64,000 bases of DNA from Mytilus trossulus (Eukaryota): the NCBI RefSeq assembly GCF_036588685.1, contig NC_086382.1:57722001-57786000 (forward strand), given 5' to 3'. The position numbers and the translations under genes are program-made. The notes under the pieces were generated by a model. That model was not told where the DNA came from, made no database searches, and saw nothing but the letters and a program-made list of their open reading frames with translations. This document shows, one piece after another, positions 29,701 through 63,105 of the stretch (position 1 is its first letter; each line of letters begins with the position of its first letter).

Positions 29701-31520
29701 TCAACAATACCTTGCTTTAAATTTTCAACATCTGTTTCCAAATCATGAATTTTTTGTTGAGATTTATCCAGTTCACTATTTAATTCTAATTTTACTTGAG
29801 AATCTGTGGCTGAATTTAAAGTTAATGTTTCACATGTACTTTCTAGTTCTTGTAGTCTCTGAAGAGCTTCAGTTTTATTTTCTACTTCTCCTTTCAGATT
29901 AAGAATTTGTTCATTTGCCTGAGATAGTTTTTCCTCTAACTCCTCTCTAGCACTCTCTTTAGTTGATAATTCTGACCTACTAAGATCTAGTTCTTCTTTA
30001 TTACTATTAACCTCTGTTTGTAAATGTTCATTTTGTGCTGTAACTTCACTTAATTTTGCTTGCAGTTTCTGACATTGCTGTACAAGTTCGCTCATAGCTG
30101 TCTCAGAGTCTTTGTTGTTACCTGTTACTGCAGAAAACGATAACTCCAAATCTTGCTTTTCTGTAGTTAGTCTGTCAACACATAATTTAAGTTCAAGATT
30201 TTCCTCTGAAATCTTTTCAAGAGTCAGTGATAACTGGTCCTTTTCTTTAGAAATATTTTCTGTAGACTGTTTAAGTTCTTCAATATGTTTTGAAAGTGTT
30301 TCTTTTTCACTCATAAGATTACTGTTTCCTTCAGCTAAAATTGCAATTTGTTCTTGTAAAGATAAATTCTCTGATTTTAAATTTTCACTATCTGTGACCT
30401 GATTGGTTAATTCCAAAATTTCATTCCTCAGTGTTTCATTTTTTGCTGTCAGTTCATTTAATTCAGATTCTTTAGATTCAATTGTATTTTGAATCATTGT
30501 TATCTGGTCAGAAAACTGACTTTGCAGTAACTGTTTTTCTTCTGTTTGATTGGCTAATTTAATTTCAATATCTTTCATACTTTCCTTATACTGATGATCT
30601 AGTTGTGAGATATTCTCTTGCAGAGACTGATTTTCTTTTATTTGATTGGTTAATTTGGTTTCATAAAAACTTTGCAAGTCTTCAACTTTCTTTTCAATTT
30701 CATCACCTAAAGTCTCTTCACTATTCTCTAGTTTTTGTTTTAGGACACTTATTTCCTGTTCTGATGTTCCGATAACATCTTTTATAATTTCAGAAACTTG
30801 ATTCAGATTTTGGAAATCTATATGATGTAATTGAGGTGTGAGCAGTTTGAGACTGTGAGCAAATTGAGATAAATTTTCTTCATGGAATGCTAACTGATTT
30901 GATAAATCTACAATCTTTGAAGCTGTTTGTTCAAGATTTTTCTGAAGACTTTGCTTTTCTTCTTCAAGTTGCCCTTTTTCTATTTCCCCTTGTTTAACAT
31001 CATTCTGCAGCTGTTCCACTGATGACGTCTGCTTTCTGACTTCCTGTTGAAGAGATTGTATCAGTTCTTCAAAATTTCCTACTCTTTCTTCCATTTCTTT
31101 AACATAACTTTCTTTTTCTTCAGTTATTTTTTCTAACTCTAAAATTTTTGTTGATAATTTTTCAATTTCTGATTGTTTTTCTTGAAGTTCCTGTTTTTCC
31201 TCTTGAGCATCCAACTGAGATTTTTCTAAAGAGCTATTTATAGCAACATGATCATTTGAAAGTTGTTCATATTTTTGTGACAATTCTGACAATTGATTTT
31301 CTAATTCTGATTTTGTTTCTTCTAATACTGTTGAAGATTCAAATAATGTTTTGAACTTTTCTTTGATTTCTGCATATTGATGTTCTTTTGTTGATAATTG
31401 ATTAGATAATGTTTCTATTTCAGATGATTTCTGTTCAAGGAGTTCTTTGACTTCCAATAACTCTGCCTGTTTGCTTTCAAGTTCTTTTGATTTTGTCTGA
31501 CTATCCTCTTCTTCATGACC
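26787..31520 (-). CDS. GOLGB1: Giantin-like golgin large exon (4,734 nt, 1,578 codons, phase 0-0)
   Basis: ORF 26682..31457 extended to acceptor ttattcag|GGT; donor CAG|gtgtgt after EARCQQLARQ. Confidence 0.88.
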
Positions 31521-32214: not shown

Positions 32215-33120
32215 CTCAGCTTTAGCAGCTTCTTCCTTCTCTTTGATTGTTTTCTGTAATTGGAACTTCAATTTCTTAGCAGTAGCAAGTGCTTTCTTAA
32301 ACTGAAGTTCTTTATCATCAAATGCTTTCTTCATTTCTGCAAGTGCTTCCTCTTTCTCTGAGAGTGACTGTTTGATTTCACTTATTTCTGTCTCCCTGGT
32401 CGTAATTGTAGCTGTCAGAGATTCGTTTGCATCAGCCAAGGGAGATAATGTTTCCTCTTCTTCCTGAAGATTTTCAACCAATGATATGATTTTCTGGTCT
32501 TTTTCTGAGACAGTATGTTTTAGTTTTTCTATCGACGTTTGTAACTCTAAAATTGATGAATCCTTTTCTGATAAAGACTGATTAGCATCTTCTAAGGTTG
32601 TTAACTCTTCATCTTTCTCTGTTATGACATCCTTTAAATTATCAATTAACCCTTGCATTTCGTTGATTTTCTCTTCTTTTTCATTTGAAGCCTGAATTAA
32701 ATTTTCTACTATTTTTTTCTGTTCATCAAGGCTAAGCTGTAGTTCTTCAGATAATTGCTCATATTTCAGTCTCTGCTCACCTAGTTCTTTAAGATTTTTC
32801 TCATATTTTTGAATAGTTTCATCTTTTTCAGCTGCGTTTTCATTAAATGTTTCTATCATTTTCCTTTGTTCCTCTACAGTGATTTCCAGTCTTTCTGACA
32901 AGCTTTCATATTTGCATTTCTCTTGTGTTATTTCTGATACCTCATTTCTATATTCATTAATTGTCTTTTTATGTTCGTCCTGTTGAGTAAGTAACTGCCT
33001 CTGAAGATTTTCGATTTCCTGCTTAGAGAGAACACATTCCTCTTTTAGATCTTGAATCTGACTGGTTAACATTGTAATGTCAAGTTTTAGGTTTTCTCTA
33101 TCATTTTTACTGAAACCATT
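32215..33120 (-). CDS. GOLGB1: Giantin-like golgin exon (302 codons, phase 0-0)
   Basis: ORF 32134..33072 extended to acceptor ttttttcag|AAT; donor GAG|gtttgt; contains KKALATAKKLKFQLQK. Confidence 0.88.
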
Positions 33121-34640: not shown

Positions 34641-34644
34641 ATGT

Positions 34645-34832: not shown

Positions 34833-34913
34833 CATTAGCTACATACTGACTGAAATCTGCTGTAATCATTTATAATACCTAAGAAACATGCATAAACAAA
34901 TCAAGTACATTAC

Positions 34914-34977
34914 CTCAGCAGCAGACTGTAGTGTTTGGACCTTTTCTACCATTACAGCTTCTTCTATAAATGGAACT
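34914..34977 (-). CDS. GOLGB1: Giantin-like golgin small exon (64 nt, phase 2-0)
   Basis: Acceptor tattgcag|A, donor GAG|gtaatg; encodes VPFIEEAVMVEKVQTLQSAAE; restores frame together with 36478-36563. Confidence 0.78.
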
Positions 34978-36477: not shown

Positions 36478-36563
36478 TTCTGAATCTTTGGATCTGTATT
36501 ACCATCCACCTCTTCTACATTCTCTCTATGACCACCTTGTACAATGTCTGCCATCTGTTGGAT
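36478..36563 (-). CDS. GOLGB1: Giantin-like golgin small exon (86 nt, phase 0-2), not in ORF track
   Basis: Acceptor tattgtag|ATC, donor AA|gtaaga; encodes IQQMADIVQGGHRENVEEVDGNTDPKIQ(K); phase matches the next exon. Confidence 0.78.
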
Positions 36564-38530: not shown

Positions 38531-41500
38531 ATTTTCTGTTTTTCCAGAAAGGTTGCCATGGGCGTCTGCTGTTTCCGACTGTTTTAGTTGCTGTTTCAAT
38601 GTGGAGTTTTCCAAACAGAGTCTATCAATATTATCTTCCAACATGTGAACTTTCTCTTCATTTTTACGCAACTGAAGTTTTAACTCGTCTTCAATTTTAT
38701 CCTTTTCTTGAACATGCTCTTTTATTTGAGTTATAGTCTGCTCAGCTTCTTGCAGTGAAGTGACAAATGCCATTTTTGATGCCTCTGTCACTTCCAGGAT
38801 GCTCTGTTTGCCATACAACTCTTGCATTAAGTCAGTGATTTTAGCTTCCTTTTCTTGTAACTTTTGAGCATTTGAAGCATTGAATTCTTCAATAGTATTC
38901 ATAATTTTATCCTGATCCTCTGATTGTTTATCGTACATCTCTTGCATTTTTTTCATTTCTTCAATCCTTTTCATCAGATCATTCTGTATATTATTTAGAC
39001 TTTCTGTAAGAGATTTTATTTGTTCATCCTTTGTCTCTATCTGTCCTTCCATTTCATTCACTTTTTCAATATTTTCTCGTTTTGATTGTTCAATAGATAT
39101 AATATAACTATCTTTGTCTTGAATAATTTGTTTTGATTTTTCACATTCAGATTCAGAAGATGACAATCTTTCCCGCAAGTTTGTTATAGCAATTTCTGCT
39201 TCTTCTAGTTTCAGACTAAAAGATTTTTTACAGTCTTCTAAAGCATTTAAAGTACGTTCAAGTTGTTCACATTCATTTTGATACAGCTGTTGAAGATCCT
39301 GCATTTCACTTCCTTGCCTGGACAGGTTGTCCTTTAATCTTGCCAACTGACTTTCAAGTTGGTGCATTTGATTGTCTTTTTCAGTAATTTGTCCTTGATC
39401 TGGGACTACTAACAATTTTTGTTTCAGATCAACCAAACTTTGTTCTTTTTCCTCCAATTTCAATTCATAATTGTTTACAATCATTTCCATAGTTTTGGTG
39501 TTTTCCTTTTCTTGCTGTATTAAGCTCTGAGCTTTTTCTAGTTCTTTTTCAAGCTCTGTAACTTTCTCTTCACTTTTACTATACTTCGAAAGCAAATCTA
39601 ATTGAGATTGTTTTAAATTCGAAAGTTCTAACTTAATTTTTGTCATTAAGTTATTGATATCTTCATTTTGAAGAACATCCATCTCATGTTCAGATACTCC
39701 AAGATCATCAGTAAGCATTTGTACAAATTCCTGCTTCGTTTGTGTAACACTTGAGTTTAGTTGTTCTTGGAGGTAGCTAACAGTGTTGCTTAGCTGGGCA
39801 ATTTCTTCACACTTTGCTTCTTTCTCTGTTACCATTTGTTGCAAATCTGATTCTTTCTTCGACAACATATCTTGGAAATCATCGATAGCTTCAGTCATGG
39901 TTTTGATTTTTGAATCTTTTGATTTCAATGCTTTTTCAGTTTCTTTAACTAGATTTTCTTTCTCTGATTTCAATGTTTTCCACATATCTTTATATAATTC
40001 TTCATTATGACGTAACAAATTTGTATCATTGTTGAGTTCTTCAAACTCTCTTTCTGACTCATCAGCAATGTGTTGTAGGTGCTCACATTTTCTTTCCATC
40101 TCAGTATTACTCATTGCATATGAAGAATTCAATCCCTCTAATTCTTCGATTCTTGATTGCATAGAAGCAATCTGATCATGGTCCCAAACACCTTGCGAAG
40201 CATTTTCTGTTTTTAGAGATAAAATTTCTTGAGTTTTATCTTCAATAGTTTTACATAGCTCCATTTTCTCCTCTTTCAATGAATCTAAATTATTTTGAAA
40301 TATCTCTATATCTTTTTCAAAAGTTTCCCTTAAAGAAAACAGTTCATTTTCCTTACTACTAAAATCAGTTTGTAATTTTTCTATTGTTTGTTTCATTTCA
40401 TTCACATGGAGGTTTTTAGCATCAAGTTTCTGTTTCATGTTGTCAAGTTCACTTTTCATGTCCAGAACTTCTCTTTCTGGGACTACAAGTTCATTCTGTG
40501 GACCTTCACTCCCAGATTTTAGTGGCAACTCCTGTTGTTTTTCATCACTTTCTATAGAAACTACATCTGTTTCAATGGATGCATCGTGTATCATTTCTGC
40601 TTGTGAATTAGATATTTTTCCTTCATCAACAATGAGACTTTCTGGCGAAGTTTCAGTATTTTCCATTGAACTTGGCTCTAACATTTCCTCTATTATGGGA
40701 AGCACATCTGAAGCTCCAACTACTGACACATTTCCTCCAAGATTATTTATATGACCTTGAAGTTTATCTATTTCCTGTCTATACCATATCTCATATGAAT
40801 TCCATGTATTCTGTAAACCTGTTATTTCCTCATTCTTATATCTTTCTATCTCCACTTTTTGATTTTCAAGCTCGGTCTTGTACCACTGTTCCCATGCTAA
40901 CATGTTACTAGATAAGTTTTCAATTTCTTCAGATTTTGCAATGTTTTCAACTTCATATTTAGAAACTTTTTCTTGAAGTTCTTTGATTCGTGTAACATAT
41001 TCCTGACAAAGTCTAATAGATTCATCTAACTCTTTTGATTTTGAAAGCTGACCTTCCTTTAAAGATTCATTTTCTGATTTTAGAATGAGAATTTCATCCT
41101 CTAGTCCAGACACATGAGAAGATTCACTGCTTTGAGATTCGGTTTCTGACATCAGTTTATTTAACTTTGTATCTTTTGCTTTACAAAGTGTTTTCAGTTT
41201 TTTTATCTGTCCATTCATTGCCTCTTTCTCTTTGCTAAATTTTTCTCTTTCACTTTTCATTTCTAACTGAAGATTTTCCAAGTCTATCGAAAGACTGTTA
41301 GCATTGTCAGTTGCTGTTGGTAGCTCTACAGACTGTAAGGGTTCTGAAGCTTCTTGTTTTTGGAAAGTTTCCTGAACAACTGTCTCTTGTACCATTTCTT
41401 GCCTCTGGTATTGCTCTGAGACCATTTTCTCTTCATGTATTGCATGCTGTTTTTGATTTTCATGAAATAACTGTTCAAATTTCTCCTTCCAAGTCAAAGC

Positions 41501-43912
41501 ATCCTCTAGTTCTTGTGACAGCATCCCTACTTCTTGGTCACTATATTCTAACTTCTCCATCAGATGTTGTACTCTCTCATTCAACACTACAACATCCATC
41601 TCTTTATCAGCGATTAAATTCTCCTGTTGAGATAAAATGTCCTCCATTTTAGCCACCTTGGCTGCTTTCCCTTTGCTGACTTTCTTTAACTTTGCTATTT
41701 CTAAATTCAAATGTTCTTTTTCCACAAGGACATTTTGTAATTCTACTTTCACTTTATCTACACTGCCATCACCGTCTGATACCTGTCGACGAACAGAAGC
41801 TACACTTTGTTCAATCTTTTCCTTTTCAATCATCAGTTCTTTCTTCTCACTTTCCAATTTCACAATATGTTCATGATTTACATCTAAATTTTTCTTAAAT
41901 TCTTCAATTTGATAATCCTTTTCATTTATGTTTCTTTGCAACTGATCGATATTTGCTTGTAAGTGATAACACTTTTCCTCCAGATCCTGGAAATGGGCCA
42001 CTGACTCATTCAGTTCATCTCTTAAGGTCTCTTCTTCACTATATAAGTCATCAAGTCGACCATTTAACTCATTTATTTGTTCCTTGAGAATGACAACCTC
42101 AGTATCCTTTTCAACAAGAACTTTTTCTTGGACAACAACAACTTCTTCAAACTTTTTAGCTTTTATATCCCTACTTTTACCTAGCTTTTGAAGTTTACCA
42201 ATTTCATTTACAAATTTTTCTCTTTCTTCCTCCACCTCCTGAAAGTTTTTGTTCATTTCACTAATGTATTCTTCATCTTCCTTTAATTTTGCCTCAAGTT
42301 TTTTAATTCTCACATCTTTTCCTTTTACAAGAGCTGACAATTTTTTATTTTCAGCAATCAATTTATCTCGTATTGAAATGGCTTGTTGTAGTTCATTGTT
42401 TATTTCTGAAATACCAGTCTCCCGCTCTCCTATAACATTTGTGAGTGTCTCTTTGTCATATTCAAAGTTTTGAAATGCTTCTTCATACTGTTGTTTAGAA
42501 GCAAGCATTGAGTCTTTTTCTTCACTAACTCGTTGAAGCTCTGTTTGACTTTCATCTAATCTGTCAGTAAAATCTTGTTTGACTTTATCTAATTCGCCTT
42601 CTAACCAATAACATCTGTCTTTGAGTTCAAAGTTTTCACCCCTCATGATCTCTAAATCTTTTCTGGTCAATTCATCTTCATATAAAACATCATCCATCCT
42701 GTGCTCTAAGTTTTTAATTCTCTCTTTTGACATGAAAATTTCAGCATCTTTGTCAGCAATGAGTTTTTCTTGTTCCGAGACAACTTCCTCAAATTTCTTG
42801 TTCTTAACTTCTTTACCCTTGTAGAGTTTTTGCATTTTCTGTAATTCAGCATTTATTTCATCTTTTTCAGAGAAATTTATTTTCAGTTGTTTTTCTAGTT
42901 CTTCATGCCTAAATTTTGCTTCGTCAAGTTCATAGTTTAATTTTTCAATTGCTGATTCTTTTACTGACAACTGATCTTCACATTCCTGTGTAAAATTTAT
43001 CAGTTTTTCATCTTTTCCTTTACATATTTGTTGCAATTTTGAAATTTCATTCTCCAAATTTTCTTTTTCATGCAACATAAATTTTTCTTTGTCAACCAAG
43101 TCCAAGAGTTCATTTTCCATATCTATTGCTATTTGTTCCTTATCCTGAACAGTCCTTTGCAATGATTCGACATACTGTTCTAAGTATAAGATTTGATCTT
43201 CATGTGCACCTTTAACTTGGTCATGTTCGATTCTGCTATCACTTTGTGCTGACAGTACCTCCTCTTCTAGCTGCTGACATTTCATTTCAAGATGTCTATA
43301 GTCTATTTCATATTGATCATATTTTTGTTGAAGTTGATTATAATCCGCTTCTGATTTAGTCATTTCAGAATGCAAAAACTCCTCATCATAGTTGACATCT
43401 TTCAGTTTACTTTCTAGTTGTATTATATTTTCTTTGAACACAATAATATCCGCCTCTTTTGTGGCAAGTAACTTTTCTTGCTCGTTGACAACATCCTGAA
43501 ATTTCTTTACTTTGGCTTCCCTTCCTTTGTACAGTTTTTGTAATTTGTTTAGTTCTGTTTTAATTTCTTTATTTTCATTTACACTTTTGTCTTTTTCCGA
43601 CCTTAAGTTGTTTATTTCAGATGTCAACAGTTCATTCTCTTTGAGCAGACTATCATTGAGAACAGTCTGCTCTTGTGAAGAACCCTCAAGTCTCCCCTGT
43701 AATTCCGAAACAGTCTGTTCTAGTTTAGATTTTTGAGATTTCATTTCTTCCACATTTGCTGTCACTTCAGACAATCTGATTTTAAGTTCTGATATTTCCT
43801 GTTCTTTAGATAATTTAAAAGCACCAGATTCCTCAACAGCTCGAGATAATTTCACATCTTTTCCTTTGTTTACCTTCTCTAACTTCTTAATGTCAGTTTC
43901 CAGTTGTTCTTT
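38531..43912 (-). CDS. GOLGB1: Giantin-like golgin giant exon 2 (5,382 nt, 1,794 codons, phase 0-0)
   Basis: ORF 38456..43855 extended to acceptor tttcacag|AAA; donor AAT|gtaaga. Confidence 0.88.
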
Positions 43913-45934
43913 CTGTGAAATGAATTTATATTAGAGCATACTCAGCATATAAACAAAAAGGTAAATACTGACCTACTGTTAAGTTCAGAAATTCATGCAT
44001 GCATTTATTAATGTACAAATCCTTGACTTTTGGCTAACTTGAGAAATCTTGTTAATGCAATTGCAAAAAAATGTGTAAAATTATTTTTGTGCTAAACAAT
44101 ACTGTCACATTTTTAGTGTTCATAAACACATACTATACTTAAAATTTAGAAATAATATTTTGGGAGGTTTTCAGAAAGAAAATGTCAAATTACTTAAACA
44201 ATACTTTAAATTTTCAAAGTATTGCAATTTTATTTTTGTAATCATAATTCGATTTTGCATTTTTTGCTAGTGGTCAAGGATTTCTAATAATAAATGCACA
44301 CATTAATTCTTTACTTACAATAGTCCAGTACATTGCAAAATATATAAATCAAATAATTCTTACAATAACTTATACAGTTGCCTTCATTAAATAATTTCAT
44401 AATTTCTATTTATATGAAAATTGAAAGATATGTAACTTTTTCATTTTCAAGAAATATTTCCTACACACAAGGTTCAAAATTCAAAAAAAAAAATTTCGAT
44501 AAATTTAGGATTGTTTTACTATAGGTGAATCAGAAACAGTATTGATAAATATTTTTAAAGAAATAAAAAATATTCAAAAGTAAAAAAATCCTGTTATTTT
44601 ATCATATTTCTCAAAATTTAACATTCAAAGGATTTTAGGTATAGAAAAAGAGTTGAAGCTGTGTGAAACTCAATTCTGCATATAGTAACTTAATATTTTT
44701 AGAAATTTGATAACAAGGTAGATTTAATAGAAATATTTTACAGGTTACTGATAGAAAGAAAAGTGCTGACTGAAGAATAAAGATTTGATAATTCAGTTAA
44801 TACTTAATTTACACTAAAAATTGAATTATGATAAATTATTAGGCAAACAACATAACTAATTTGAGACACTGAGGTGATATTTAGGCATTCTATACTTTGT
44901 AAATGAGAAATATCTGCCAATGCTGAGAAACATCATGGAATATCATTTTGCTATCCATTTCTATCTTAAATGACTGAGTGATTCTCTCCCATTCCTGGCA
45001 TTGTGGTTTAATGAACCAACTTTAACAAAATAACTTAACTACACCTGTATTCTAATTTTCAAAAAATTCATAACATTTTATTTTTTGATGCTTCGGATGT
45101 CTTCTTAATAAGGGTGGAGGAGGGTTGAATAAAATTCTAAACTGCACCAATCATAAACTGAATGAAAATAGCCATAACCAAACTTAAATAAACCTTTACC
45201 AAATCACACAGGATAAAAATATTGAATAACAAAAAAAAAAGATAATTTTTTATAAATGTAAAACAATTAAGTGTACTTTTTTTTCTACCATTTAGAAAAA
45301 AGACTTTAAACCATTTTTATAAATAAAATATTGATCAAGATAAACTGAATACTCAAAATAAAAATAATCTCTTATTTTATCTATATTTCTGATTAATTAT
45401 GCTCCCTTAATCATACAATATTCATTTTTTCTCTCTTTTTTTCCCATCTGTGTGTTTATATGAAATGGGAAAAAAAATAATAAAAGTATCTACTATTGGA
45501 CCTACTGTTTTCGAAAAGAACATGGGTTTGGCTACTCATTTCAAAATAATTAAATTTTATTATTGGCTGAAATTTTGAGAAACAATAAAAACTTTGTTAG
45601 GATTGTGAAAAGCTTAGCACGGGAATACATGTACATGTCACCTAACCAGAAAACATCTGGGCTCTTGAACAGAACCGTCTTTCCTCTTACTCTTAAATGT
45701 CTTAACTTAAAGTAAAAGCAGCAAATAATAAAATTAAATCTTTAGTTTGAACACGACTTGATATAATCCATATGACAGATATTGGTGTGTCACCAAAAAT
45801 CACAAGACCACTAAAGTTATGAAAACAAAATGAAGAAAGAAATTTTCCTGAGAGAAAGGGAATGTTATGCTCATGAAAAAAGAAATGATTTTAAAAGAAT
45901 ATACTGGGTGTTAAGTTGTTAACATGAAAATCAC

Positions 45935-48900
45935 CTTTATGGTCAACAATTTATAAGACTCCTTTTGACTTATGAGTTCAGTCTCCAAATGAGTGAAAGT
46001 GAGGTCTTTCTCTTCCAATGCTCTATCATTCTCTTCATCCTTGGTGGAAATCAGCTGTTCCAGGTCTCTACATTTAGTTCTCCAAGCATCAGTATCTTGT
46101 TCCCTTTCAACTGTTTTCTCCAGTGTTTCTGTCAGTTCAGATATATTTTGCTCTTTTTCTAACATATTTGTATGAGCCTCTTCACATTCCTGAGATAGCT
46201 GATCAAAATCTGTTTGAAGAAGGCTGAGTTTGTCTTTGCATGACTTTAATTCTTCTTCCTTTTGTTGTAATTCATCTTTAACATGAGTAAAATCTTCATT
46301 CAATGTTTGAATTTTCTCCTTCAAATCTGCCAGCAACTGAGTCACCTGTTTATTCTGTGATGACAATAATTCATTATCTTCCATAATTCTGGACACATTT
46401 TCAGTTTTATTGGTCAATCCTTCCTGGGTAGATAATAGCTCTAATCTGAGACCATCCCTTTCTTTTGAAACAGAGGACACCTGTTCAGACAGCAAATGAT
46501 TATTTTTCGATGCAGATTTAATCTCTGCTTTCATTTTGTGTATCATATCTTCTTTTTCATTCACCTTTAAATTGAAAGACTCTATGTCAATTAGCAGCAT
46601 ATCAACAGTCTGCTTCAAATTGTATTTTTCGACTTCTGTTGATTTATTTTCTTCAATCATAACTTCTTTTAAATCTCTTATTTCTTTCAGTTCACATTCA
46701 AGTGTTGCTATTTCTTCACAATTCTTATGCTGGACATTTGACAACTCTTCTGATTTGAGTGAAAGTTGTTGTTCTAGGCTCCTAACTTTTGATTCCAAAT
46801 TTTCCATGGTAACTGCCAAATGAGATAGTTCAGTTTCTTTCTGGCTAAGTTGATCTTGTAAGTAACACACTTTTTCCTCTTTTTCTGATACACGTGTTGA
46901 CATTGCTGTCGTATTGACATTGTGTTCATCCTTAACCAATGCTAGCTCTTCTTCTATCTTATCTTTTTCTTGTGCGACTGCTGACAGATTTTCATTCTTG
47001 ATTAAAAGTTCATCTTTCAAGTTTGAAATGGCTAACATAAAGTCCTCATTTTCCTTTTTGGCATTTAACAACTGGTCTGTTTGTATATTTAGCTGACCTG
47101 TCAGATTAGAAATAGATCCCTCTAAATCCTCCTTTTCTTGGGAAAGGGAAAGTAAATTCTCTTCTTTAATAATAAGTTGATTTTGTAAATCTGCTATTGT
47201 TACCTGAATAGCTTCATATTTAGTTTTTACACATGACAAATATTTTGCCTGACACAGATTTTCATGTTTCAATTTCATGACAGTGTCCCCTTTAATTGAT
47301 TCACTTTCTCTTGTAGTCTCTAGTTCTGTGGATAATATGTCAAACTTGACCTTTGTGTTATGTAACTCTTCTGCAATTGCTTGTTTTTCATCATCCAATT
47401 TTGCAATGTCATCTTTTAAAGCACATACCGTGGACATAAAGTCTTCAATTTCGTTTTGTTGCTTAGATGCTTCTTCACTCTTCTTTTCAAAATCTTCTTT
47501 CAAATCAGACAAGTTAGACATTAGTTGTTCTTTCTGATCAATTAATTCTGTAAACTGTGTGTCTCTTTCAACCAATTGCTTCGTAGCAGTTTCATTATTT
47601 TGAGTAATGGAGGACAGCATGTTTGTTTTGTGAGTCAGCTTCTCCTCAAGGTCATTTATATGTTTAGCTTTACTGACTACATCTTCCTTCAAAATATCAA
47701 GTGAAGATAAAAGTTCCACATTTTCTTGTTGGAAATTTGAAATTTTCTTCTTGTCATCTTTTGCAAATTTCATTAACTGTGAAATCTGATCATTTCTACA
47801 CATTGAATCTTGTTTCTCCTTTTCAATCTCTGCAGACAATACTTCAACTACACTAGACAATTCCTCCTGTTCAGATTCCAAGGAAGATTTGATCTCTTTT
47901 AGTGAGTACAGCTCATCTGTTGTTTTAGTTAGTTCATTCCTTGCCTCAGATAGATTGCAAATCAAGGTCTCTTTTTCCTTTGCTAAATCATTTAGTGTGG
48001 TCTCATATTGCTTAACTTTCTCTTCAAGGCTATCAACTGTACATTCAATAGTTGCCTTTTCCTGATATTGGTTTTCTATCTCCTCTGACTTTTTAGCATT
48101 TTCTGCTTTTAAACTGGCCAGCACATTATCTTTCTCTTTCAACATTTTGTTATTTTCATCTTTCATTATTTTCATGTTAAATTTAAGTATTCCAACCTGA
48201 TCAAATGTGCTTGTCACAATGTCAGATTTTGTTTCCAATTCACTGGATAAAACTTGTATCACTGTTTCCAGTTCTTTAACATTCTGTTCTAAAATAAGTT
48301 TCTCCTGTGAGAGGTTTACATTTGATGACGATTCTGACTCAAGTTTAGAGATAAGCTCATGAATCTCCTCTGATAATTTAGACTTTGACAATGCCTCAGC
48401 TTCCAGTTGTGGGATCATCTGTTCATTCTCTTTTAATAGTGTCAATTTAAATGAAGACTCAGTTTCAAGTTCTATTTTTAACTCATCTTTCTCTTTTGAC
48501 AATGAAGATTTTTCATCTGTAGTTGTCATTAATTCTTCTTTCAAAGTAGACAAAACAGCTGTCATTTCATCTTTTTCATGCTGAATATCAGATTTTTTTT
48601 GTGTGATATCTGATAGCTCTTCCTTTGCAACTGAAAGGGATAGATTTAAATCATCTTTTTCCTTAACAAGTTCTGAAGTTTTTTCGTCCAGCAAACATAT
48701 TTGTTCAGTTAAAGAATTAATCTTGCCTGTCAGAATTTGTACTTCCCCAATTGATGCATCAAGTTGGTTTGATCTTGTTGTTAGTTCCTCCCTCAAAGAT
48801 GAAATATCCAAAATGAGATTATCCCGTTCTTGTGTGAGTGAAACAAGAATCTCATCTTTCTTTGAATCATTGTCCATCATACTAACTAACTTTGCCTCCA

Positions 48901-51900
48901 AATGTTCTTTCTCTTTAACAAGAACAGACATTTCCTCAGCTTTCATTTCCATTTCAGACTTGAGAGATGATACTGTCGTTACAAGGCTATTTCCTTCCTT
49001 CCTCAATGTTTCAACTTCTACCACTTTTTCTGACACAAATCCTTCTTTTTCATTAACAAGTGCTGCCAGATCTTCACACTTCCTATTTAATTCCTCTTCC
49101 AAACCAGTTGATCTTGTCATTAAAAGGTTGTTTTCTTCTTTCAAACTAGTAAGAGATTCTTTTAGACTAGTAATTGTGGATGCTAATTCATCTTTTTCTT
49201 TTTTAATGGATATCAAATTCTGAGAGTTGTCTTCCTTGTCTTTCTCAAGATTTGCAATAGAAGACAACAAATTGTTTTTCTCCTCTGACATAAATGCTAA
49301 GTCTTTTGTAAGGTTAGAAATATCAACTAATGACTTCTCATTTTCTATTTTCAAGAATGAAATTTCTTCATTTTTTTCAGCTAGTTTTCCTTTTAATCCT
49401 TTTATGTCATTTGTCAATTTGCAAACTTTCTCCTTATTTACAGATTTCTGTTTGGATATCAAATCTTCTTTTGATGATAGACTTTGTTTAGTTAATTCAT
49501 TCTCATTAGATAACACAAATAAACTTGTTGACATTTGTTCAAGATCATGTTCCAGTTTAAATTTTAAATCTGTTTGTAAATTTACGTCTTCTTTAAGGGA
49601 TTCCATATTTGATAAAAGACAATCTTTTTCAGCTGAAATTGAATCAATTTGTTCAAGTTTGTTTGCTAATTCAATTTTGAGTTCTGACACATTTGTTTGC
49701 ACACCATCTGTCTGTTGCATCAGCAATGACATTTTTTCTGTAGCTTTTTCAAGCTCACATTTCAAATTGGTCTCAGAAGATATCAATTGATCTTTTTCTT
49801 CAGTCAAAGCAGCTACAGTCAACATTAGTCCATCTTTTTCTTTTTGCAAAGAAACAAATTCAGTTTTAATAGTTTCATTACGCTCTTTAAATTTTGATGC
49901 TGTTAACATTATTTGTTCTTTTTCTTCCAATAATTTATTTCGGTCTGTATTTTTCAATTCTAAATTTGTCATCAAAGTTTCATTTTGTTCGGTGATGATA
50001 TCTACATCTGTGGATTTAATTTGCAATTCATCTTTGATTTCTACAATTGTGGCCTTCAAATTTTCCTGATCATGTGTCAAGTCAGCTATAGTTATATTTC
50101 TTGTTGACAATTCGTCTTTAACATTGGAGAGATCAGATAATAACCCATCATTTTCTTTCATTAAGCTGCTTATGTTGTCTGCTTTACCTAATATCTCATC
50201 TTGAAGACTTGATATTTGAATCAGCAGGTGCTCTTTCTCATTTTGAGTTTTAGTCAGTTTTACTTTGTGTCTCATCAGCTCAGATTTCAGTTTTACAGAT
50301 GTGTCTTCTTTTGCAGCAACATTCTGCACTGCTGTGTCTAATTCACTAGACAATATATTAACAGATGACAAAAGCTTTTCCACTTCTTTTTCTACAACCT
50401 GCTTCTCATCAGCTAACTGTAATTTCAGAGTTAACAAAAGTTCCTCATTTTTGGTCACTGCATTAGTTAGTTCTTTTGATTTATTAGACAATTCTTCCTT
50501 CAAACTAGACACAGTTAACATTAGGTCATCTCTCTCATGTGAAGCTGTTTCAATGTTTTCTTTTAGACTGGAAACAAGAGATGACATATCACATTTATCT
50601 TGTGTCAATGTGGCCAGTTCTTCCTTTAAACCTGTCACAGCTGAAACAAGATGCTCCTTTTCTTGTGATATTGTGGCTTCTTTTTCAGATTTAATGGACA
50701 ACTCTTCTTTAAGACAAGAAATAGTTGACACCAGACCATCTCTTTCTTGTGTCAAAGTTTCCAGTTCTTCATTAAGACTTGAAACAGTTGACATCAGATT
50801 GTCTTTGTCTTTAGTAAAAGTGGCAAGTTCTTCCTTGAGAAAGGAAATAGTTGACTCCCCACCATCTTTGCTCTCTGTCAAAGTGGCAATTTCCTCTGAC
50901 TTGACATTCAACTCTTCTTTCAGAAGGCAATTTGTGGCTAACAGGCCATCTTTTTCTTGTGTCAGTGTGACAATGTCTTCTGATTTGTTGGTCAGTTCTT
51001 CTTTCAGACTAGAAACAGTCGAAACCAGACCATCTTTTTCTTGTGTCAGTGTGACAATATCTTCTGACTTGTTGGTCAGTTTTTCCTTCAGACTAGAAAC
51101 AGTTGAAACCAGACCATCTTTTTCTTGTGTCAGTGTGACAATGTCTTCTGACTTGTTGGACAGTTCTTCTTTCAGACTAGAAACAGTTGAAACCAGACCA
51201 TCTTTTTCTTGTGTCAGTGTGACAATATCTTCTGACTTGTTGGTCAGTTTTTCCTTCAGACTAGAAACAGTTGAAACCAGACCATCTTTTTCTTGTGTCA
51301 GTGTGACAATATCTTCTGATTTGTTGGTCAGTTCTTCCTTCAGACTGGTAACAGTTGACACCAGACCATCTTTCTCTTGTGTCAGTATGACAAAACCTTC
51401 TGACTTGGTGGTCAGTTCTTCCTTCAAGCTAGAAACAGTTGCCACTAGACCATCTCTTTCTTGTGTCAGTGTGACCATACCTTCTGATGTGCTTGACAGT
51501 CCTTCCTTCAGATTAGAAACAGTTGACACGAGACAATCTTTTTCTTGTGTCAGTGTGATATTGTCATCTAGTTTGCTGGCAAGTTCTTCTTTAAGAATTG
51601 AAAGAGTTGACAATAAGCCATCTTTTTCTTGTGTCAATGTGAGAATGTCTTCTGACTTTGTGGTCAGTTTTGCCTTGTGCCTTATCAGCTCAGATTTCAG
51701 TTTCACAGAAGTGTCTTCTTTTGCAGCGACATTCTGCACTACTGTGTCTAACTCACTAGACAATATATTAACAGATGACAAAAGCTTTTCCATTTCTTTT
51801 TCTACAACCTGCTTCTCATCAGCTAACTGTAATTTCAGAGTCAACAAAAGTTCCTCATTTTTGGTCACTGCATTAGTTAGTTCATTTGATTTATTAGACA

Positions 51901-54900
51901 ATTCTTCCTTCAAACTGGACACAGTTGACATTAGGTCATCTCTCTTCTGTGTAGCTGTTTCAATGTTTTCTTTTAGACTGGAAACAAGAGATACCATATC
52001 ACATTTCTCTTGTGTCGATGTAGCCAGCTCTTCTTTCAAACCTGTCACAGCTGAAACAAGATGCTCCTTTTCTTTTGATATTGTGGCTTCTTTTTCAGAT
52101 GTAATTGACAACTCTTCTTTAAGACAAGAAATAGTCGACACTAACCCATCATTCTCTTGTGTTGATATGATAAGTTCTTCTGACTTTAATGCCAGTTCCT
52201 CATTAACATCAGAAACAGCTAATTTCAGACCATTTTTTTCTTGTGTCAATGTAACTATCTCTTTTGATTTGATTGTCAGTTCTTCATTTAGATTAGAAAC
52301 AGTTGACACCATATCATCTTTGTCTTGTGTCAATGTTGCAAGTTCTTTCTTAAGAATGGAAATAACTGACTCTACACCATCTTTGCTATCTGCTAATGAG
52401 GTGATCTCTTCTAACTTAATAGCCAACTCTTCTTTCAGAATAGAAACTGTGGCCATCAGGCCATCTTTTTCTTGCATCACTGTAGCTAGCCCTTCTGCCT
52501 TGCTGGATAGTTCTTCATTAAGACTAGAAACTGTAAACTTTAATGTATCTTTTTCTTTTGTCAATGTGATAATTTCATCTTGTCTGTTTGACAGTTCTTC
52601 CCTTAGACTTGAAACTGTGGACACTAGACCATCCTTCTCTTGAGTTACTACAGCAATGTCTTCTGTCTTAGTACTCAGTTCCTCCTGAAGATTAGATGCA
52701 GTTAATGCTATCTGATCTTTCTCTTTTTTGGCTGTCATTAATTCTTCTATCTTGTTAGCCAGTTCCTCCTGAAGGTTAGATGCAGTTAATGCTAGCTGAT
52801 CTTTCTCTTGTTTGGCTGTCATTAATTCTTCTATCTTGTTAGCCAGTTCCTCCTTTACACTGGAAACATTTAGTATAAGGCCGTCTTTTTCTTGATTCAT
52901 GACTGTTCGTTCTTCTTCAAGACTAGAAACAGTTGTTAACAGGCTATTATTTTGTTGTGTCAATGTGTTGATATCTTCTGATTTGTTAGTTAGTTCTTCT
53001 TTCTGGTTAGAAACAGTTAATACCATTTTCTCTTTGTCTTGTTCTGATGCTGCCAATTCTTTCTTGAGAACGGAGATAACTGACTCTACATCATCTTTGC
53101 TATCTGCCAATGAGGTGATCTCTTCCAACTTGATAGCCAACTCTTCTTTCAAATCAGATACTGTGGACGTCAAACCATCTTTTTCTTGCTCCAGAGTTGT
53201 TATCTCTTCTGACTTGTTGAATAGCCCTTCCTTAAGAGCTGAAACAGTAGATATGAGCCCATCACTTTCAGTTTTCAGTGTGACAATATCATCTGCATTG
53301 TTAGACAGTTTATCTTTGAGAGTACAAACATTTAACATCAGATGATCATTCTCTTGTGTCACTGCCATTAATTCATCTATCTTTTTAGCAAGTTCTTCCT
53401 TAACACTAGAAATAGTTAATAACAAGCCATCCTTTTCCTGTGAAAACATTGCCAGTTCCTCTTTAAGACTAGAAACAGTTGACATAAGACCATCTTTTTC
53501 TTGTGTCAGTGTGACAATGTCTTCTGATTTGTTGGTCAGTTCTTCCTTCAAGCTAGAAACAGTTGACATCAGACCATCTCTTTCCTGTGTCAGTGTGACA
53601 TTATCTTCTGATTTGTTGGTCAGTTCTTCCTTCAAGCTAGAAACAGTTGACATCAGACCATCTCTTTTTTGTGTCAGTGTGACATTATCTTCTGATTTGT
53701 TGGTCAATTCTTCCTTCAAGCTAGAAACAGTTGACATCAGACCATCTCTTTCTTGTGTCAGTGTGACATTATCTTCTGATTTGCTTGACAGTTCTTCCTT
53801 AAGACTAGAAACAGTTGACACCAAATCGTCTTTTTCTTGTGTCAGTATGACAAAATCTTCTGACTTGGTGGTCAGTTCTTCCTTCAAGCTATAAACAGTT
53901 GACATGATACCATCTCTTTCTTGTGTCAGTGTGACATTGTCATCTAATTTGGTGGCAATTTCTTCTTTGAGACTAGAAACAATTGACACCAGACCATCTT
54001 TTTCTTGTGTCAATGTGAGAATGTCTTCTGACTTGGTGGTCAGTTTTGCTTTGTGTCTTATCAGTTCAGATTTCAGTTTCACAGAAGTGTCTTCTTTCGC
54101 AGCAACATTTTGCACTGCTGTGTCTAATTCACTAGACAATATATTAACAGATGACAAAAGCTTTTCCATTTCTTTTTCAACTTCCTGCTTCTCATCAGCT
54201 AACTGTGATTTTAGAATCAAAAAATGTTCCTCATGTTTGGTCAGTGCATTGGTTAGGTCATTTGATTTATTGGACAGTTCTTCCTTCAAACTGGACACAG
54301 TTGATATTAGGTCATCTCTCTCATGTGTAGCTGTTTCAATGTTTTCTTTTAGACTGGAAACAAGAGATACCATATCACAATTCTCTTTTGTCAATAGAGC
54401 CAGTTCTTCCTTTAACCTTGTAACAACTGAAACAAGATGATCATTTTCTTGTGTAAATGTGGATTCTTTTTCCGATTTAATGGATAACTCTTCTTTAAGA
54501 CAAGAAACAGTTGACACCAGACCATCTCTTTCTTGTGTCAAAGTTGTCAGTTCTTCATTAAGACTTGAAACAGTTGACGTCAGATTGTCTTTGTCTTTAG
54601 TCAATGATCCAAGTTCTTCCTTGAGAACAGAAATAGTTGACTCCCCACAATCTTTGCTCTCTGTCAAAGTGGCAATTTCCTTTGACTTGACAATCAACCT
54701 TTCTTTCAGAAGGGAATTTGTGGCTAACAGGCCATCTTTCTCTTGTGACAGTGTGACAATGTCTTCTGACTTGTTGGACAGTTCTTCTTTCAGACTAGAA
54801 ACAGTTGAAACCAGACCATCTTTTTCTTGTGTCAGTGTGACAATATCTTCTGACTTGTTGGTCAGTTTTTCCTTCAGACTAGAAACAGTTGAAACCAGAC

Positions 54901-57900
54901 CATCTTTTTCTTGTGTCAGTGTGACAATGTCTTCTGACTTGTTGGACAGTTCTTCTTTCAGACTAGAAACAGTTGAAACCAGACCATCTTTTTCTTGTGT
55001 CAGTGTGACAATATCTTCTGACTTGTTGGTCAGTTTTTCCTTCAGACTAGAAACAGTTGAAACCAGACCATCTTTTTCTTGTGTCAGTGTGACAATGTTT
55101 TCTGATTTGTTGGTCAGTTCTTCCTTCAGACTAGAAATAGTTGACACCAAACCGTCTTTTTCTTGAGATAGTATGACAATGTCTTCTGATTTGTTGGTCA
55201 GTTCTTCTTTCAGACTAGAAACAGTTGAAACCAGACCATCTTTTTCTTGTGTCAGTGTGACAACGTCTTCAGATTTGGTGGTCAGTTCTTCCTTCAGACT
55301 AGAAACATTTAATTTGAGGCCATCTTTTTCTTTTTCCAAAGTAGCCACTTCTTCTACAAGTCTAGAGATAGATGACAATTGACCATCTATTCCTTGGGTC
55401 ATTAAAGCTAAATCTTCTACCTTTTTAGTCAGTTCTTCCTTGAGACTAGAAACAGTTGACACCAGACCATCTTTTTCTTGGATCATAACAGCCATTTCTT
55501 CAGATTTGTTGCGCAGTTCTTCATTATGACTAGAAACAAGACCATTTGTTTCCTGTGTCAAAGATGTCAGTTCTTCCTTTAAACTAGAAACAGTTGACAC
55601 TAGACCGTCTTTTTCTTGTGTCAGTAAGACAATATCTTCTGATTTACTGGTCAGTTCTTCCTTCAGACTAGAAACAGTTGACACTAGACCATCTTTTTCT
55701 TTTATCATTACAGCCATTTCTTCAGATTTGTTGCTAAGTTCTTTATTAAGACTAGAAACAAGACCATCTTTTTCTTGTGTTAGTGTGATAATGTCTTCTG
55801 ATTTGTTGGTCAGTTCTTCCTTGAGACTGGTAACAGTTGAAACCAGACCATCTTTTTCTTGTGTCAAAGATGTCAGTTCTTTCTCCAGACCATCTTTTTC
55901 TTGTGTCAGGTTGACAATGTCATCTGATTTGTTGGTCAGTTCTTCCTTCAGACTAGAAACAGTTGACAACAAACCATCTTTTTCTTGATTCAAAGTTGAT
56001 AGTTCTTCATTTAGACTTGAAACTGTTGACAGTAGGCCATCTTTACCTTGTGATATTGCTTCAAGATTACTTTTTAAAGTTGATATATTTTTCTCTGTCA
56101 TCTGAACATCCTCTAATAACTTTTTATTCAACATTTCTGCTTGTTTACTTAATTTTTGTTCATGCTCATACTTTTCAGTCATTGTTGCAAGTTCATGTTT
56201 AGCTTGTTCATGCTCACTATAAAGAGAATCAAATTTGGCAGTTAAAGTCTCTACTTGTGATTCCAAGTCTGATGCATGCTGGGCAAAGGTCATTTTATTT
56301 TCAGCCAATTGAGTTTGTAATTTGTGAATATCACTCATGCATATCTTGTTTTGTTTATTGATGCATGCTGTGAGAGACTTGTACTCAGTATCATGCATAA
56401 TAAAATGATTTTCTGAATCAGCGAGAGTTTGAGACAGGGTATCTATCTGTATTCTTCTATCGTCACATAAAAGTTTAAATTCACTGACCTGCTTCTGTAG
56501 ATTTGCATTCTCTGTTTCTAAGGTTTCAAACTTTGAAGAAAATCTTTGCTGCTCGTTTTGTAACTGTTGCTCTAATTCTTCAACCTTTTCATCTTTCAAT
56601 CTAAGTTCATTTTGTAATTCTCCAATGGAATGTTCTAAAGTGTTTTGCTCTTTTTGCAATGTTTTTACTTTTAACTCATAATCTTGTTCCTCAGATCCAT
56701 GTTTTTGTCTGAGTGCATCTGTCTCTGTCTCTTTAAATTTGATTTCATTCTGTAAAGCTTCAACTGATTGTTCTATATTTTTAATTTCACAATTTTTCTT
56801 GTCTTCAAGTTCTTTAAGTTGCAATATGAATTCTTCCTTCTGATTCTTACATTTATCCTTCCACTCCTTCACTAGACTTTCCTGTGACTTTTCACTACTT
56901 TGGATGTCACTGATAAGTTCCTTTGATTCCTTCAAATCATTGTGTAGTGTCTCTATATCCTTTTCTTTTGCATTCAGTGCCTCATCTAATTTATTTTTTT
57001 CATTTTGAATTTGTTTTATGTGTTCATCTTTTTCATTAACATCCTTGGTTACTTTGTCCATTTCAGTTTTAAGTTTGTTTAACATTTCAGTTTTAGCAAA
57101 TATTTCTTCCTCGATTCTTGATTTATCTAGTTCTAAAGCTTCTAGGCTTGTAAAATTTTCTTCCAGTTTGAGTTGAAGAGCAGATTTTTCCTCTAACATT
57201 TTATCATTAGTTTGTTTTAAAGATTCTAAATTGGAATTGAGTTTTTCAGTTTCAATTTTCACACTTTGAATTACATTTTGTTGTTCATCAACTTGAAACT
57301 GTAATGTTTTAACTTCATCATCTTTGTCATTTAATTTTTTATCAAATTCACTTGTTAAATTTAATTTAGCTTTTTCTGATTCATTGATTTTTTCGTTTAA
57401 ATTTTTAATTTCATTGTTTGTGTCAGCTAATCTTTCATCTTTCTCGTTGATCACTTTTTGAAGGGAGACAACTCTATCCTCTGCATTGGATGAAAGGGAC
57501 ATAATGGTAGCCTCCTTTTCACTACAAAGTTTGTTTACTTGTTCAATCTGTAAGTCCAGCTGTGACTTTTCATAAGATAATTCTGATAATTGATTTTTTA
57601 GTTCAGAAAGTTCACTTTGGTATTGTTTAGATTTTTCAGTCACCTCTTCCATTCTCTCATTTAGTTGCTCTTCCGTTAATTTTGCCTGCTTATAGTAAGA
57701 TTGTAATAAGTCGTCACTATGTTTAAGATCGTCGAATTTTTCATTTAAATTATCATAATTGGTCTGAAGTTGATCTTTCTCACTTTTAACTGTTTCCATG
57801 ACTACTTGTAATTCTTGGAACTGCTGTTTAAATCTATTTTGTTCGTCACTTGACTTTTCTTTAGTCTCATTATGAGTTTCCTCTAATTTCATTAATTCAT

Positions 57901-58618
57901 CCTTTACTTTTTCCAGCTTGTTACTCTCAGAATTAAGTTCCTCTGTTTTACATTTTAATTCCTCTTTAAGATCTGCAATAACTTTTTCAAACTGATTTAT
58001 TTCAGAATTAAGTCCTTCAGATTTAGCACAAACCTCCTCATGTTGTATCTGTAAGTTGCTCTTTTCATTAGAAATCTGATTAATAGCTTCATCTTTAGCT
58101 TTTATTTCTTGGTTTAAAGTTTCAATTTCTTGTACATTCATGTCAAATTCTGAATTTCTTTCTATCAACTGATTCTTTACTTCATCTATTTCAATTTTAC
58201 ATTCCTTTAGATCTTCTTCATACTTTTTATTACTACTTTCTAAACTATTAGTCAAAGTTTTCAATTTTTCAGTCTCTTCTGACAGAATTTCTTTTTCTTT
58301 TTCTAATACCTCAATTTTATCTTTTAAACTTTGAACCTCATTGTCATTTTCATTGGATTGTTCAGTTACTTGATTAAGATTTTCAAGAGATGAAGATAAT
58401 TTAACATTCAAAATTTCAATATCATTTTGCAAATTTTTGTTATCAGTTTCAAGTTTACTATATTCTTTTTCTTTTCTTATGAAATCTTGATTCTTTTCTT
58501 CCAACGATGTTTCATATTCACTAATTTTTTGCTCAAGCTGTGTTGAATTATTATAAGCTTCCTGGAGTGCTTTCTTGTGATCCTTTTCCAGTTGTTCAAT
58601 AAACTCCTGTTGTTCCAC
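45935..58618 (-). CDS. GOLGB1: Giantin-like golgin giant exon 1 (12,684 nt, 4,228 codons, phase 0-0) containing 28-aa repeat array
   Basis: Uninterrupted ORF 45911..58618 bounded by acceptor gtgttttag|GTG and donor AAG|gtgatt; E/K/L/S/T-rich heptad pattern throughout. Confidence 0.88.
50255..56050 (-). repeat. Coding tandem repeat, 84-bp/28-aa unit (LTQEKDGLVSTVSSLKEELTNKSEDIVT) with 21-aa variants and higher-order blocks
   Basis: Directly visible in DNA (cagactagaaacagttgaaaccagaccatctttttcttgtgtcagtgtgacaat...) and protein; degenerate units continue toward ~46400. Confidence 0.95.
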
Positions 58619-60142: not shown

Positions 60143-60457
60143 CTTTAGTTTCTCAAGGCTATCTTCTTTTGATTCATTCTCTTGGTTAACATCATGGATC
60201 TGATTGGTTAGTTGTTCAATCTGTTTCTTGTATTCTGTGATTTGATTGGTCAGTTCATCTGATGTCTGCTTAGAGGATGTTAATTCTTGTTGTAAGTTAT
60301 TCAACTGGTCTTTCAAGTCCTTTGAACTATTTTTCTCCGACTCCAACTGGACATTTAAACTTTCTATTTCTTTTGATAATTCCTGAACTTTCTTGTTGGC
60401 AGCATCCAGATTAATTTTAAGTTCATTTGATTCATTCGATGGTTGGTCCTTCTTTCC
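60143..60457 (-). CDS. GOLGB1: Giantin-like golgin exon (105 codons, phase 0-0)
   Basis: Acceptor ttttag|GGA, donor AAG|gtaagg; includes most of ORF 60107..60346; heptad-rich. Confidence 0.88.
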
Positions 60458-60999: not shown

Positions 61000-62076
61000 C
61001 TGTTTCAACTTCTCTACCTCCTTTTCAAGAGATTTAATCTTGGATGTCATTTGTGCCTTCATTTTCAACATTTTAGGATCTGACTTCCCACTACTAGAAG
61101 GTGCTTCTTCCTTTTTCAGAGAATTCATTTCAGTTTCTAAATCTTTTATTTTCTGTTTCATTTTATCATTATCATTATTCAGTTCATCAACTATTTTATT
61201 CTTTTCTTGAATTTGCTTTTCTAAATCTAATACTGTTTTATCATTTTGTTCAGAATTTTGACTTGTGCTGCCATCTTGCTGAGTTACTGGAACAGCGCCC
61301 CCTGGTGTCAGTGTCTGCTGGAATCTAGCCTGCAGTTTGTTATATTGTTCCATGGCCTGTGTATAGAGAGCTTGATATTGTGTTAGTTGACTTTGCATTG
61401 AATGTGTCTGTAATTCTTTCTCAGATTGTTCATGATCATGTTTCTCAATAAGTTCCCTCATTCTTTCATTTAAACGACTTTTTTCTTCTTTCCATTGCAT
61501 TTCCATATCAACTTGATCTGCATTCAGCAACATCAATTGTTCAGATGTTACTTGCAATTTTTCCTTAAAATTTTTTTGAATATCTAAATTTTCATTTATT
61601 TGCTTCTCTTTTTCTTTATTCTCCTTTTGCAGAACCTCAATGACTTTAATTTTACCTTCTAAAACTTCATTTGTGTCTTTGAGATTTTGTTCCAACATTT
61701 TTAAAACTTGATCCTCAAGATTTATTTCACCTTTAGACATAATTCGTTGAACATCTTGTTCATGCCTTGAAATAATTTCCTTAAGATCCCCATCCCTCAT
61801 TGAAATTTCATCGTTTTTAACCTGAACAAGATTCCGTAAGTTTTGAATCTCATCTTCACGTTCTTTTAACGATTCTTCGAAATATCTCTGAGATTCTTGT
61901 AGTCTGAGATTGAATCTTTCTGATTCTTGTTTGAGTTGATGTTGAGATTTGTCCACTTCTTCTTTAAGAGTATCCTGTGTTTCTTCACCATGTTCTACTT
62001 TTGATGACAGTTTGGCAATAAGAGCATTCTGATCATGGACAGTCTGATCTTTTTCTCTTATTGATGTCTGTAGAAT
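61000..62076 (-). CDS. GOLGB1: Giantin-like golgin exon (359 codons, phase 0-0)
   Basis: Extends ORF 60988..61956; acceptor attactag|ATT (second in-frame acceptor ctacag|ACA would start at 62067); donor CAG|gtaatt; coiled coil ending KMLKMKAQMTSKIKSLEKEVEKLKQ. Confidence 0.88.
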
Positions 62077-62946: not shown

Positions 62947-63105
62947 CTCCACTACTTTATCTCTTCCTCTTATCACTTCATTTTTCTCTGAAATATATTC
63001 CTGCAAATCCATCAATTTCCCTTCCATTTCTAGAATTTTGTTGTTTAGTTCTAATAAGTTTTTGTCTTTATATACCATTTGTGCATACATAGCCTGCATA
63101 TTTCC
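62947..63105 (-). CDS. GOLGB1: Giantin/lava lamp-like golgin, most 5' coding exon found in window (53 codons, phase 0-0)
   Basis: Acceptor tttttgcacag|GGA and donor GAG|gtatga; encodes GNMQAMYAQMVYKDKNLLELNNKILEMEGKLMDLQEYISEKNEVIRGRDKVVE; in frame with next exon. Start codon lies outside the window. Confidence 0.85.

Follow-up and report, generated by a model that had tools for sequence, protein, structure and literature searches.

A giantin-like gene of the mussel Mytilus trossulus with putative optional giant coiled-coil segments

The locus and its product

A stretch of 64,000 nucleotides (nt) from the mussel Mytilus trossulus (assembly GCF_036588685.1, contig NC_086382.1, positions 57,722,001 to 57,786,000; hereafter the window, whose numbering is used throughout) holds a single minus-strand gene spanning 20.7-66.2 kb, for whose product giantin, judged from the sequence, would be the best name. 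It seems probable that this gene yields an ordinary form of 3,560 amino acids (aa) through a splice from 56489 to 36563 and, likely, also giant forms of 5,354, 7,078 and 8,872 aa, by inclusion of a 5,382-nt exon and by reading on through 10.5 kb of coding sequence.

The window has about 32% GC, in a genome of 1.30 Gb, and the gene was modelled with 18 exons, all with GT-AG ends and with a joined frame free of internal stops. Exons 13-18 are sequence predictions only, and exons 1-3 lie just beyond the window in the adjoining region, so that 161 aa of the protein are encoded outside it. Exon 6 and the 5,382-nt exon each have a genome-wide copy number of one. An earlier, sequence-only reading of the window had described two exons, of 12,684 and 5,382 nt, with phase 0 on both sides, and had computed the lengths that follow from skipping either or both. 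We reproduced the minus-strand frames, 58618-45935 (12,684 nt) and 43912-38531 (5,382 nt), which have AG/GT ends and phase 0 on both sides, and all four lengths (2,850, 4,644, 7,078 and 8,872 aa in full, or 2,689, 4,483, 6,917 and 8,711 in the window). The phase symmetry that it took as special evidence carries little information, because phase 0 is ordinary in this gene (13 of 17 introns; 10 of 16 internal exons are 0/0).

The transcript evidence consists of assembled contigs from five coded runs without tissue labels, drawn from two studies and aligned separately to two regions: X1, X2, X3 and X5 over 30,201-50,200, and X1, X2, X4 and X5 over 56,100-62,150, with the repeat array at 50,201-56,099 outside both. 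These runs are not recorded as RNA (24 runs are listed), and we take their contigs as RNA solely because spliced joints with GT-AG ends are present. Counts of runs refer to the four aligned to the region in question, and the gene is laid out as follows.

Beyond the window, in the adjoining region, minus strand: exons 1-3, which carry the start codon ATG and the KLRLQAKAK motif of the N-terminus
62947..63105, minus strand: exon 4, matched by loose contig ends at 62078 in three of four runs
61000..62076, minus strand: exon 5, 359 aa, the most conserved part of the protein (56 homologues at E<=0.001), with the joint 61000->60457 in four of four runs
60143..60457, minus strand: exon 6, 105 aa, its donor joined to 58618 in four of four runs
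56489..58618, minus strand: exon 7 in its short form, 2,130 nt and 710 aa, terminating at the internal donor CAG/GTCAGT
45935..56488, minus strand: optional extension of exon 7, 10,554 nt, 3,518 aa of coiled coil with one proline, and a predicted distal donor AAG/GTGATT at 45935
50241..56052, minus strand: repeat array of 84-nt units (28 aa, four heptads), together with variant units of 63 and 126 nt and a duplicated stretch of 1,294 nt (91% identity)
38531..43912, minus strand: exon 8, the optional cassette, 5,382 nt and 1,794 aa, absent from an X1 contig and joined to 36563 in X5 by record arithmetic
41111..43909, minus strand: eight basic motifs, E..KLxKLxKGK[DE]xKxxK, related to the N-terminal KLxLQAKAK motif
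36478..36563, minus strand: exon 9, 86 nt, with the acceptor common to short and long forms and the joint 36478->34977 in four of four runs
34914..34977, minus strand: exon 10, 64 nt, joined to exon 9 in RNA contigs
32215..33120, minus strand: exon 11, 302 aa, with the conserved KKALATAKKLKFQL anchor, linked to exon 12 by an X1 contig
26787..31520, minus strand: exon 12, the third very large exon, 4,734 nt, with a long Lymnaea homologue
26375-26229, 25485-25313, 24894-24741, 23872-23806 and 21383-21329, minus strand: exons 13-17, sequence prediction, no stop in the joined frame
20713..20845, minus strand: last exon (18), with the C-terminal transmembrane anchor WVYFVFLHIMMFASVFGLI and the stop

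The product has two features of giantin (GOLGB1), namely a coiled-coil rod exceeding 3,000 residues and a membrane anchor at its C-terminus. The anchor is of the CASP/golgin-84/giantin type, a class marked by a conserved Tyr/His; 21 of its 42 residues are identical to the Lymnaea model, it leaves almost no lumenal tail, and the last exon matches CASP_C positions 215-246 weakly (E 0.011, under the cut-off). The 3,560-aa short form has a heptad signal of 4.1-6.6, against 2.5-2.8 in shuffled sequence, and 0-1.1% proline. In length it is near human giantin (3,259 aa), zebrafish giantin (3,356 aa; PMC5082667) and the Lymnaea model (3,670 aa).

The sole long homologue of exon 12 among 2,844 candidates is this 3,670-aa model, and the Lymnaea stagnalis model CAL1543522.1 bears the automatic UniRef label 'Golgin subfamily B member 1'. 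Residues 1-3382 of the short form are colinear with the Lymnaea protein (P0001, residues 1-3510); five of the six anchor intervals agree closely, and the sixth measures 1,159 aa in the mussel against 1,309. The homologues of exon 5 include abalone, limpet, snail and amphioxus proteins. The comparison to giantin thus runs via the Lymnaea label and the homologous amphioxus protein, the homologue searches having returned no vertebrate giantin. Pfam gave generic coiled-coil matches only, as did the Atlas look-up, and exon 5 had no match among solved structures.

At exon 1, the mollusc homologues begin about 60 aa later than the amphioxus protein, for whose first 60 aa no matching upstream exon was found in 57 kb. 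Three gastropod models (from Haliotis, Lottia and Biomphalaria) match the mussel N-terminus and come to an end at residues 574-627 of the mussel protein, a short way ahead of the giant exon, and gastropods may also hide unannotated long exons behind this point. In molluscs, models of this gene seem to be split or to bear wrong labels (CENP-E-like, kinectin-like).

Splice junctions and surrounding sequence

The joint 60143->58618, the one junction proposed by the sequence-only reading that was recovered, is present in four of four runs, and X2 and X4 contigs run through it for at least 255 letters on either side; the start of the 12.7-kb exon is therefore not skipped. The other three junctions that it had named (60143->43912, 60143->36563 and 45935->36563) were not among the junctions listed. 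Instead, a 250-nt X1 contig follows 56710-56489 and then continues with 28 letters that equal the first 28 nt of the exon at 36563, a string that occurs once in 123 kb. This splice removes 10,554 nt of exon 7 together with the 5,382-nt exon, 15.9 kb of coding sequence. Further contig ends at 56489 come from two X2 contigs and one X4 alignment (X1's study), X5 having no contig there. The donor at 56489 is in phase 0 and ranks top of the 577 GT sites in the exon, scoring 5.8 in a simple matrix against 3.0 for 45935. From the 56489 splice and the 60143->58618 joint it follows, therefore, that 2,130 nt of the first giant exon are common and that its other 10,554 nt form an optional extension.

All four runs have contig pieces from the 5,382-nt exon, 224-922 nt long. 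Record 26 of X5 (431 nt, depth 7.72) matches 38531-38800 with its letters 162-431, and its first 161 letters equal 86 + 64 + 11; its depth equals that of the sole X5 contig at the 36478->34977 joint, which itself occurs in X1, X2, X3 and X5. We read this arithmetic as the 5,382-nt exon joined to 36563. Record 10 of X2 begins at 38531 with 16 unaligned letters. The proposal that both giant exons can be skipped thus holds for the 5,382-nt exon, skipped in X1, and fails for the 12,684-nt exon as a whole cassette, since its first 2,130 nt are joined in four of four runs and the exon divides at an internal donor.

Contig depth (0-4 over the covered extension, 0-4 over introns, 0-9 over the cassette and 4-33 over common exons in most bins) was discarded as a measure of inclusion, as contigs cannot rank parts of one gene. 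A low-depth X2 contig exits exon 7 at 56777, where there is no GT, into 151 AT-rich letters absent from the window, possibly an insertion allele or a chimera.

Introns 9-10 (33500-36460) are rich in genome-wide repeats and noisy for contig alignment; a short frame within them, 33613-33894, is presumably like a retroelement fragment. On the 3' side of the stop (17675-20712), six AATAAA signals in 3 kb allow possible alternative 3' ends. Elsewhere in the window, 2680-7087 is an exact tandem duplication (2,204 bp, 100% identity) containing 135- and 161-bp tandem arrays, which is either a very recent event or an assembly artefact. About 9-14.5 kb past the window end, broken frames occur on both strands, which we take to be like an LTR retrotransposon on the plus strand and a LINE-type reverse transcriptase on the minus strand.

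The extension and the cassette

Both giant inserts have the composition of coiled coil (E+K+Q+L 44-47%, proline 0-0.5%). Over its 3,518 codons the extension has no stop in its own frame, against 343-349 in the other two (log10 P ~ -126), and its heptad signal is about twice that of shuffles. The ratio of nonsynonymous to synonymous differences (pN/pS) is 0.28 for pairs of 18 repeat units, 0.33 for the distinct variants and 0.49 for the 1,294-nt duplication. The extension is under purifying, protein-level selection.

Two animal contigs from marine metagenomes, L008 and L009, have the same extension-then-cassette layout. In L008 a frame of at least 1,973 aa is followed by a predicted phase-0 GT-AG intron of 3.2 kb at the same place and then by a cassette homologue, and in L009 the extension counterpart and the cassette homologue share one frame of at least 4,763 aa; the two upstream frames are mutually homologous (528 bits). 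This layout favours an in-frame join of extension to cassette as well as fast turnover of the spacer. Close to its frame start (574-2254), L009 carries a separate repeat array with units of 42 nt (14 aa, two heptads) and of 21 nt; L008 has none, and the repeat expansions of the two lineages, mussel and L009, are both in whole heptads. A likeness seen by eye near the repeat start between the mussel extension and these frames was dropped after reversed and shuffled controls. The 710-aa part of exon 7 found none of 426 candidates in a metagenome scan.

The cassette frame is free of stops over 1,794 codons (log10 P ~ -70) and has seven homologues, two at 60% with the same ends and the others at 26-30%. 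A Crassostrea virginica model joins a cassette homologue to an exon-12 homologue (129 + 82 bits; controls <28). The Lymnaea model lacks both the cassette and its motifs. The extension has no detectable homologue. The basic motif occurs in eight copies in the mussel cassette, seven in the oyster model and six in L009, and is the best-conserved part of the cassette across oyster, mussel and the two metagenomic contigs. A hidden Markov model of the motif found nothing above 8 bits in the short form, the extension, the L008 upstream frame or Lymnaea.

Several comparisons point from this motif to the N-terminus of the protein. The amphioxus N-terminal stretch aligned to motif copy eight, and an ungapped profile of the cassette motifs ranked the N-terminal KLxLQAKAK stretch first in six of six giantin homologues (0.7-25 bits; true copies 31-55). 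In the reverse direction, with an N-terminal profile, cassette motifs hold five of the six top places in the mussel, all six in the oyster and five of six in a further protein (P0004). On this sequence comparison the cassette repeat appears to be old, likely a multiplied N-terminal motif and not a lineage-specific expansion, because the motif is common to oyster and other animals and the profiles match reciprocally. The view that each giant exon had expanded separately within its lineage therefore fits one of them: only the extension's repeat looks lineage-specific.

Isoforms, alternatives and significance

The computed forms measure 3,560 aa (short), 5,354 aa (with the cassette), 7,078 aa (extended) and 8,872 aa (both). 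At the coiled-coil rise of 0.148 nm per residue, the upper bounds of the rods are 0.52, 0.79, 1.04 and 1.31 micrometres. The idea that splicing sets rod length, proposed from the sequence, is supported by the short form (one contig) and by inclusion of the cassette (record arithmetic), with a different geometry, namely an alternative 5' donor (56489 or the predicted 45935) plus one cassette. Nor would length be all that varies, since the second giant exon also carries eight conserved basic motifs.

Choice of the donor at 56489, whose junction was seen in one contig, drops both optional parts. Suppression of this donor, or use of the acceptor at 43912, would likely give longer tail-anchored rods. 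Joining of the distal donor 45935 to 43912 would produce the 8,872-aa tail-anchored rod, up to about 1.3 micrometres long as against about 0.5. The extension would then be a spacer that sets reach, growing in whole heptads and changing fast between lineages, and the cassette would set valency by adding the basic motif of the N-terminus in eight copies. In mammals the N-terminus of giantin (first 70-448 aa) binds the acidic tail of p115 (PMC2175190, PMC2173270). The p115 of the mussel genome also ends in an acidic tail, IEDDDDDDDLGDDLDDEDEES, with a tail exon of 21 aa, and the basic N-terminal motif is conserved in six homologues; by analogy, p115 may be the first candidate partner. The p115 step, by which the long forms would be both longer and multivalent tethers, is a tentative suggestion and less likely than not. 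Cell-type control of the splice choice is our guess. The whole picture, a bivalve cell-type switch from a 0.5-micrometre rod with one motif to one that reaches up to 1.3 micrometres and carries nine docking motifs of the p115 type, made of a conserved cassette and a lineage-lengthened heptad spacer, is speculative and on the unlikely side.

A number of observations weigh against this account, and they bear on its alternatives. The short junction is known from one contig in one run and the cassette junction from record arithmetic only, and no junction at 45935 or into 43912 was among those listed in 30,201-50,200. In X1, moreover, a contig begins 30 nt into exon 6 and a second one stops 28 nt into exon 9, ends that fit a minor 60143->36563 path in a 31-mer graph; this is a weak hint, which variants or unspliced RNA explain equally. 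It could be taken for the arrangement of the sequence-only reading, in which the 12,684-nt and 5,382-nt exons would both be whole cassettes that donor 60143 can skip, and to which the phase 0 at both ends also conforms; assembled contigs also lose rare forms. Yet the 60143->58618 joint is in four of four runs, no loose end at 60143 is among those listed for X1, X2, X4 and X5, and the product of skipping both, which had been equated with an ordinary giantin, would place 449 aa between KAQMT and KKALATAKK, an interval that measures 1,159 aa when the internal donor is used and 1,309 aa in the Lymnaea protein. Two whole cassettes are thus very improbable. The missing 45935 junction, together with a donor score of just 3.0 and four AATAAA signals in the intron (though these are common in AT-rich DNA), would also suit an extension that serves as an alternative last exon, with a stop seven codons past 45935 and poly(A) in the next intron, the product being a soluble rod some 4,900 aa long that lacks the membrane anchor. 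However, the E/K-rich sequence ends at the GT and the next seven residues look intronic, L008 shows a GT-AG pair in phase 0 at this very place, and in L009 a single frame holds both parts, so that we hold this to be improbable. By their codes, X1 (organism A) and X5 (organism B) are different organisms, and the difference between short and cassette forms may therefore lie between species and not between tissues. There may then be no regulated switch, the long forms being normal in some species or alleles, or rare by-products; the short junction is from organism A, the cassette junction from organism B, and the runs lack tissue labels. X2 (organism A), however, has contigs ending at 56489 as well as one that begins at the cassette's donor, a single assembly contains the two donors together with the cassette, and the extension is under purifying selection, which makes the absence of a switch quite improbable in our view.

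The remaining objections concern the spacer, the motif and the function. The unique 3' part of the extension has no homologue among 7,970 candidates, and the mussel extension did not score above reversed or shuffled controls against the upstream frames of L008 and L009. The reverse profile placed the cassette motif only sixth in L009 and gave an unrelated Lymnaea stretch 10.7; both motifs are lysine-rich, and part of their match may be composition. Giantin captured no vesicles in an in-cell assay (PMC4707255, PMC6611411), so 'tether', and tether length with it, should be read loosely; giantin may link or space cisternal rims (PMC4707255, PMC6611411, PMC6732663, PMC11974933). It may be, then, that the long forms are mere spacers or rim filaments, and that the basic motif is structural or binds a partner other than p115 (Rab, lipids, microtubules). 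By every test the extension is a sequence-free spacer, golgins carry Rab sites along their length (PMC4707255), and the motifs match modestly, at 9-25 bits where true copies reach 31-55, but no part of the cassette is more conserved than this motif, which neither the extension nor the remainder of the short form contains. We regard a role as spacer alone as possible, if unlikely. The account preferred here remains that of one gene with an ordinary tail-anchored form and optional giant segments.

Vertebrate giantin has been described as the longest coiled coil, conserved in length and not in sequence (PMC5082667). The splicing events of GOLGB1 found in two papers concern, in mouse, an exon of 123 nt (PMC9550651) and, in human tumours, an event whose size is not given (PMC4446417), whereas the mussel gene has 1,794 and 3,518 optional aa, which would give up to 8,872 aa. 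A closer parallel in architecture is offered by the giant ankyrins (AnkG/AnkB and Drosophila Ank2 L/XL; PMC5135030), which have optional exons of more than 3 kb, two in tandem in some species, with rapid sequence change, repeat arrays in some species, intron gain and loss between the exons, and omission from gene models. The 5,382-nt mussel exon, skipped in X1 and included in X5 by arithmetic, is such an exon; the 12,684-nt exon is not a whole cassette. The ankyrin exons, which are confined to one cell type (neurons), are Ser/Glu/Thr/Asp/Lys/Pro-rich, a bias that the giant mussel inserts lack, being proline-free coiled coil, and the ankyrin long exon is a cassette, whereas the larger mussel insert is an alternative-donor extension (PMC5135030). 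Among golgins, GMAP-210/TRIP11 has splicing that varies with cell type and removes functional regions; its described variants, however, delete from a protein of about 2,000 aa, with neither thousands of added residues nor a repeated N-terminal motif (PMC6611411). Among the literature matches listed, from a search with subscription journals and supplements outside its reach, giant or mollusc giantin isoforms were undescribed. With this corrected geometry the optional giant segments are real, and they make a form of a known protein that seems not to have been described.

Conservation of length is the main argument for giantin as a spacer, and what giantin tethers is described as unresolved (PMC6611411, PMC4707255). 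One gene with a 3,560-aa form and likely forms of 5,400-8,900 aa offers natural variation of rod length and of motif number, and its repeated basic motif suggests that the KLxLQAKAK stretch at the N-terminus is a functional site. If the long forms are true, a golgin coiled coil can exceed twice the length of human giantin, and bivalves would be a natural setting in which to test whether the Golgi of cells that secrete heavily is shaped by the length and valency of golgins.

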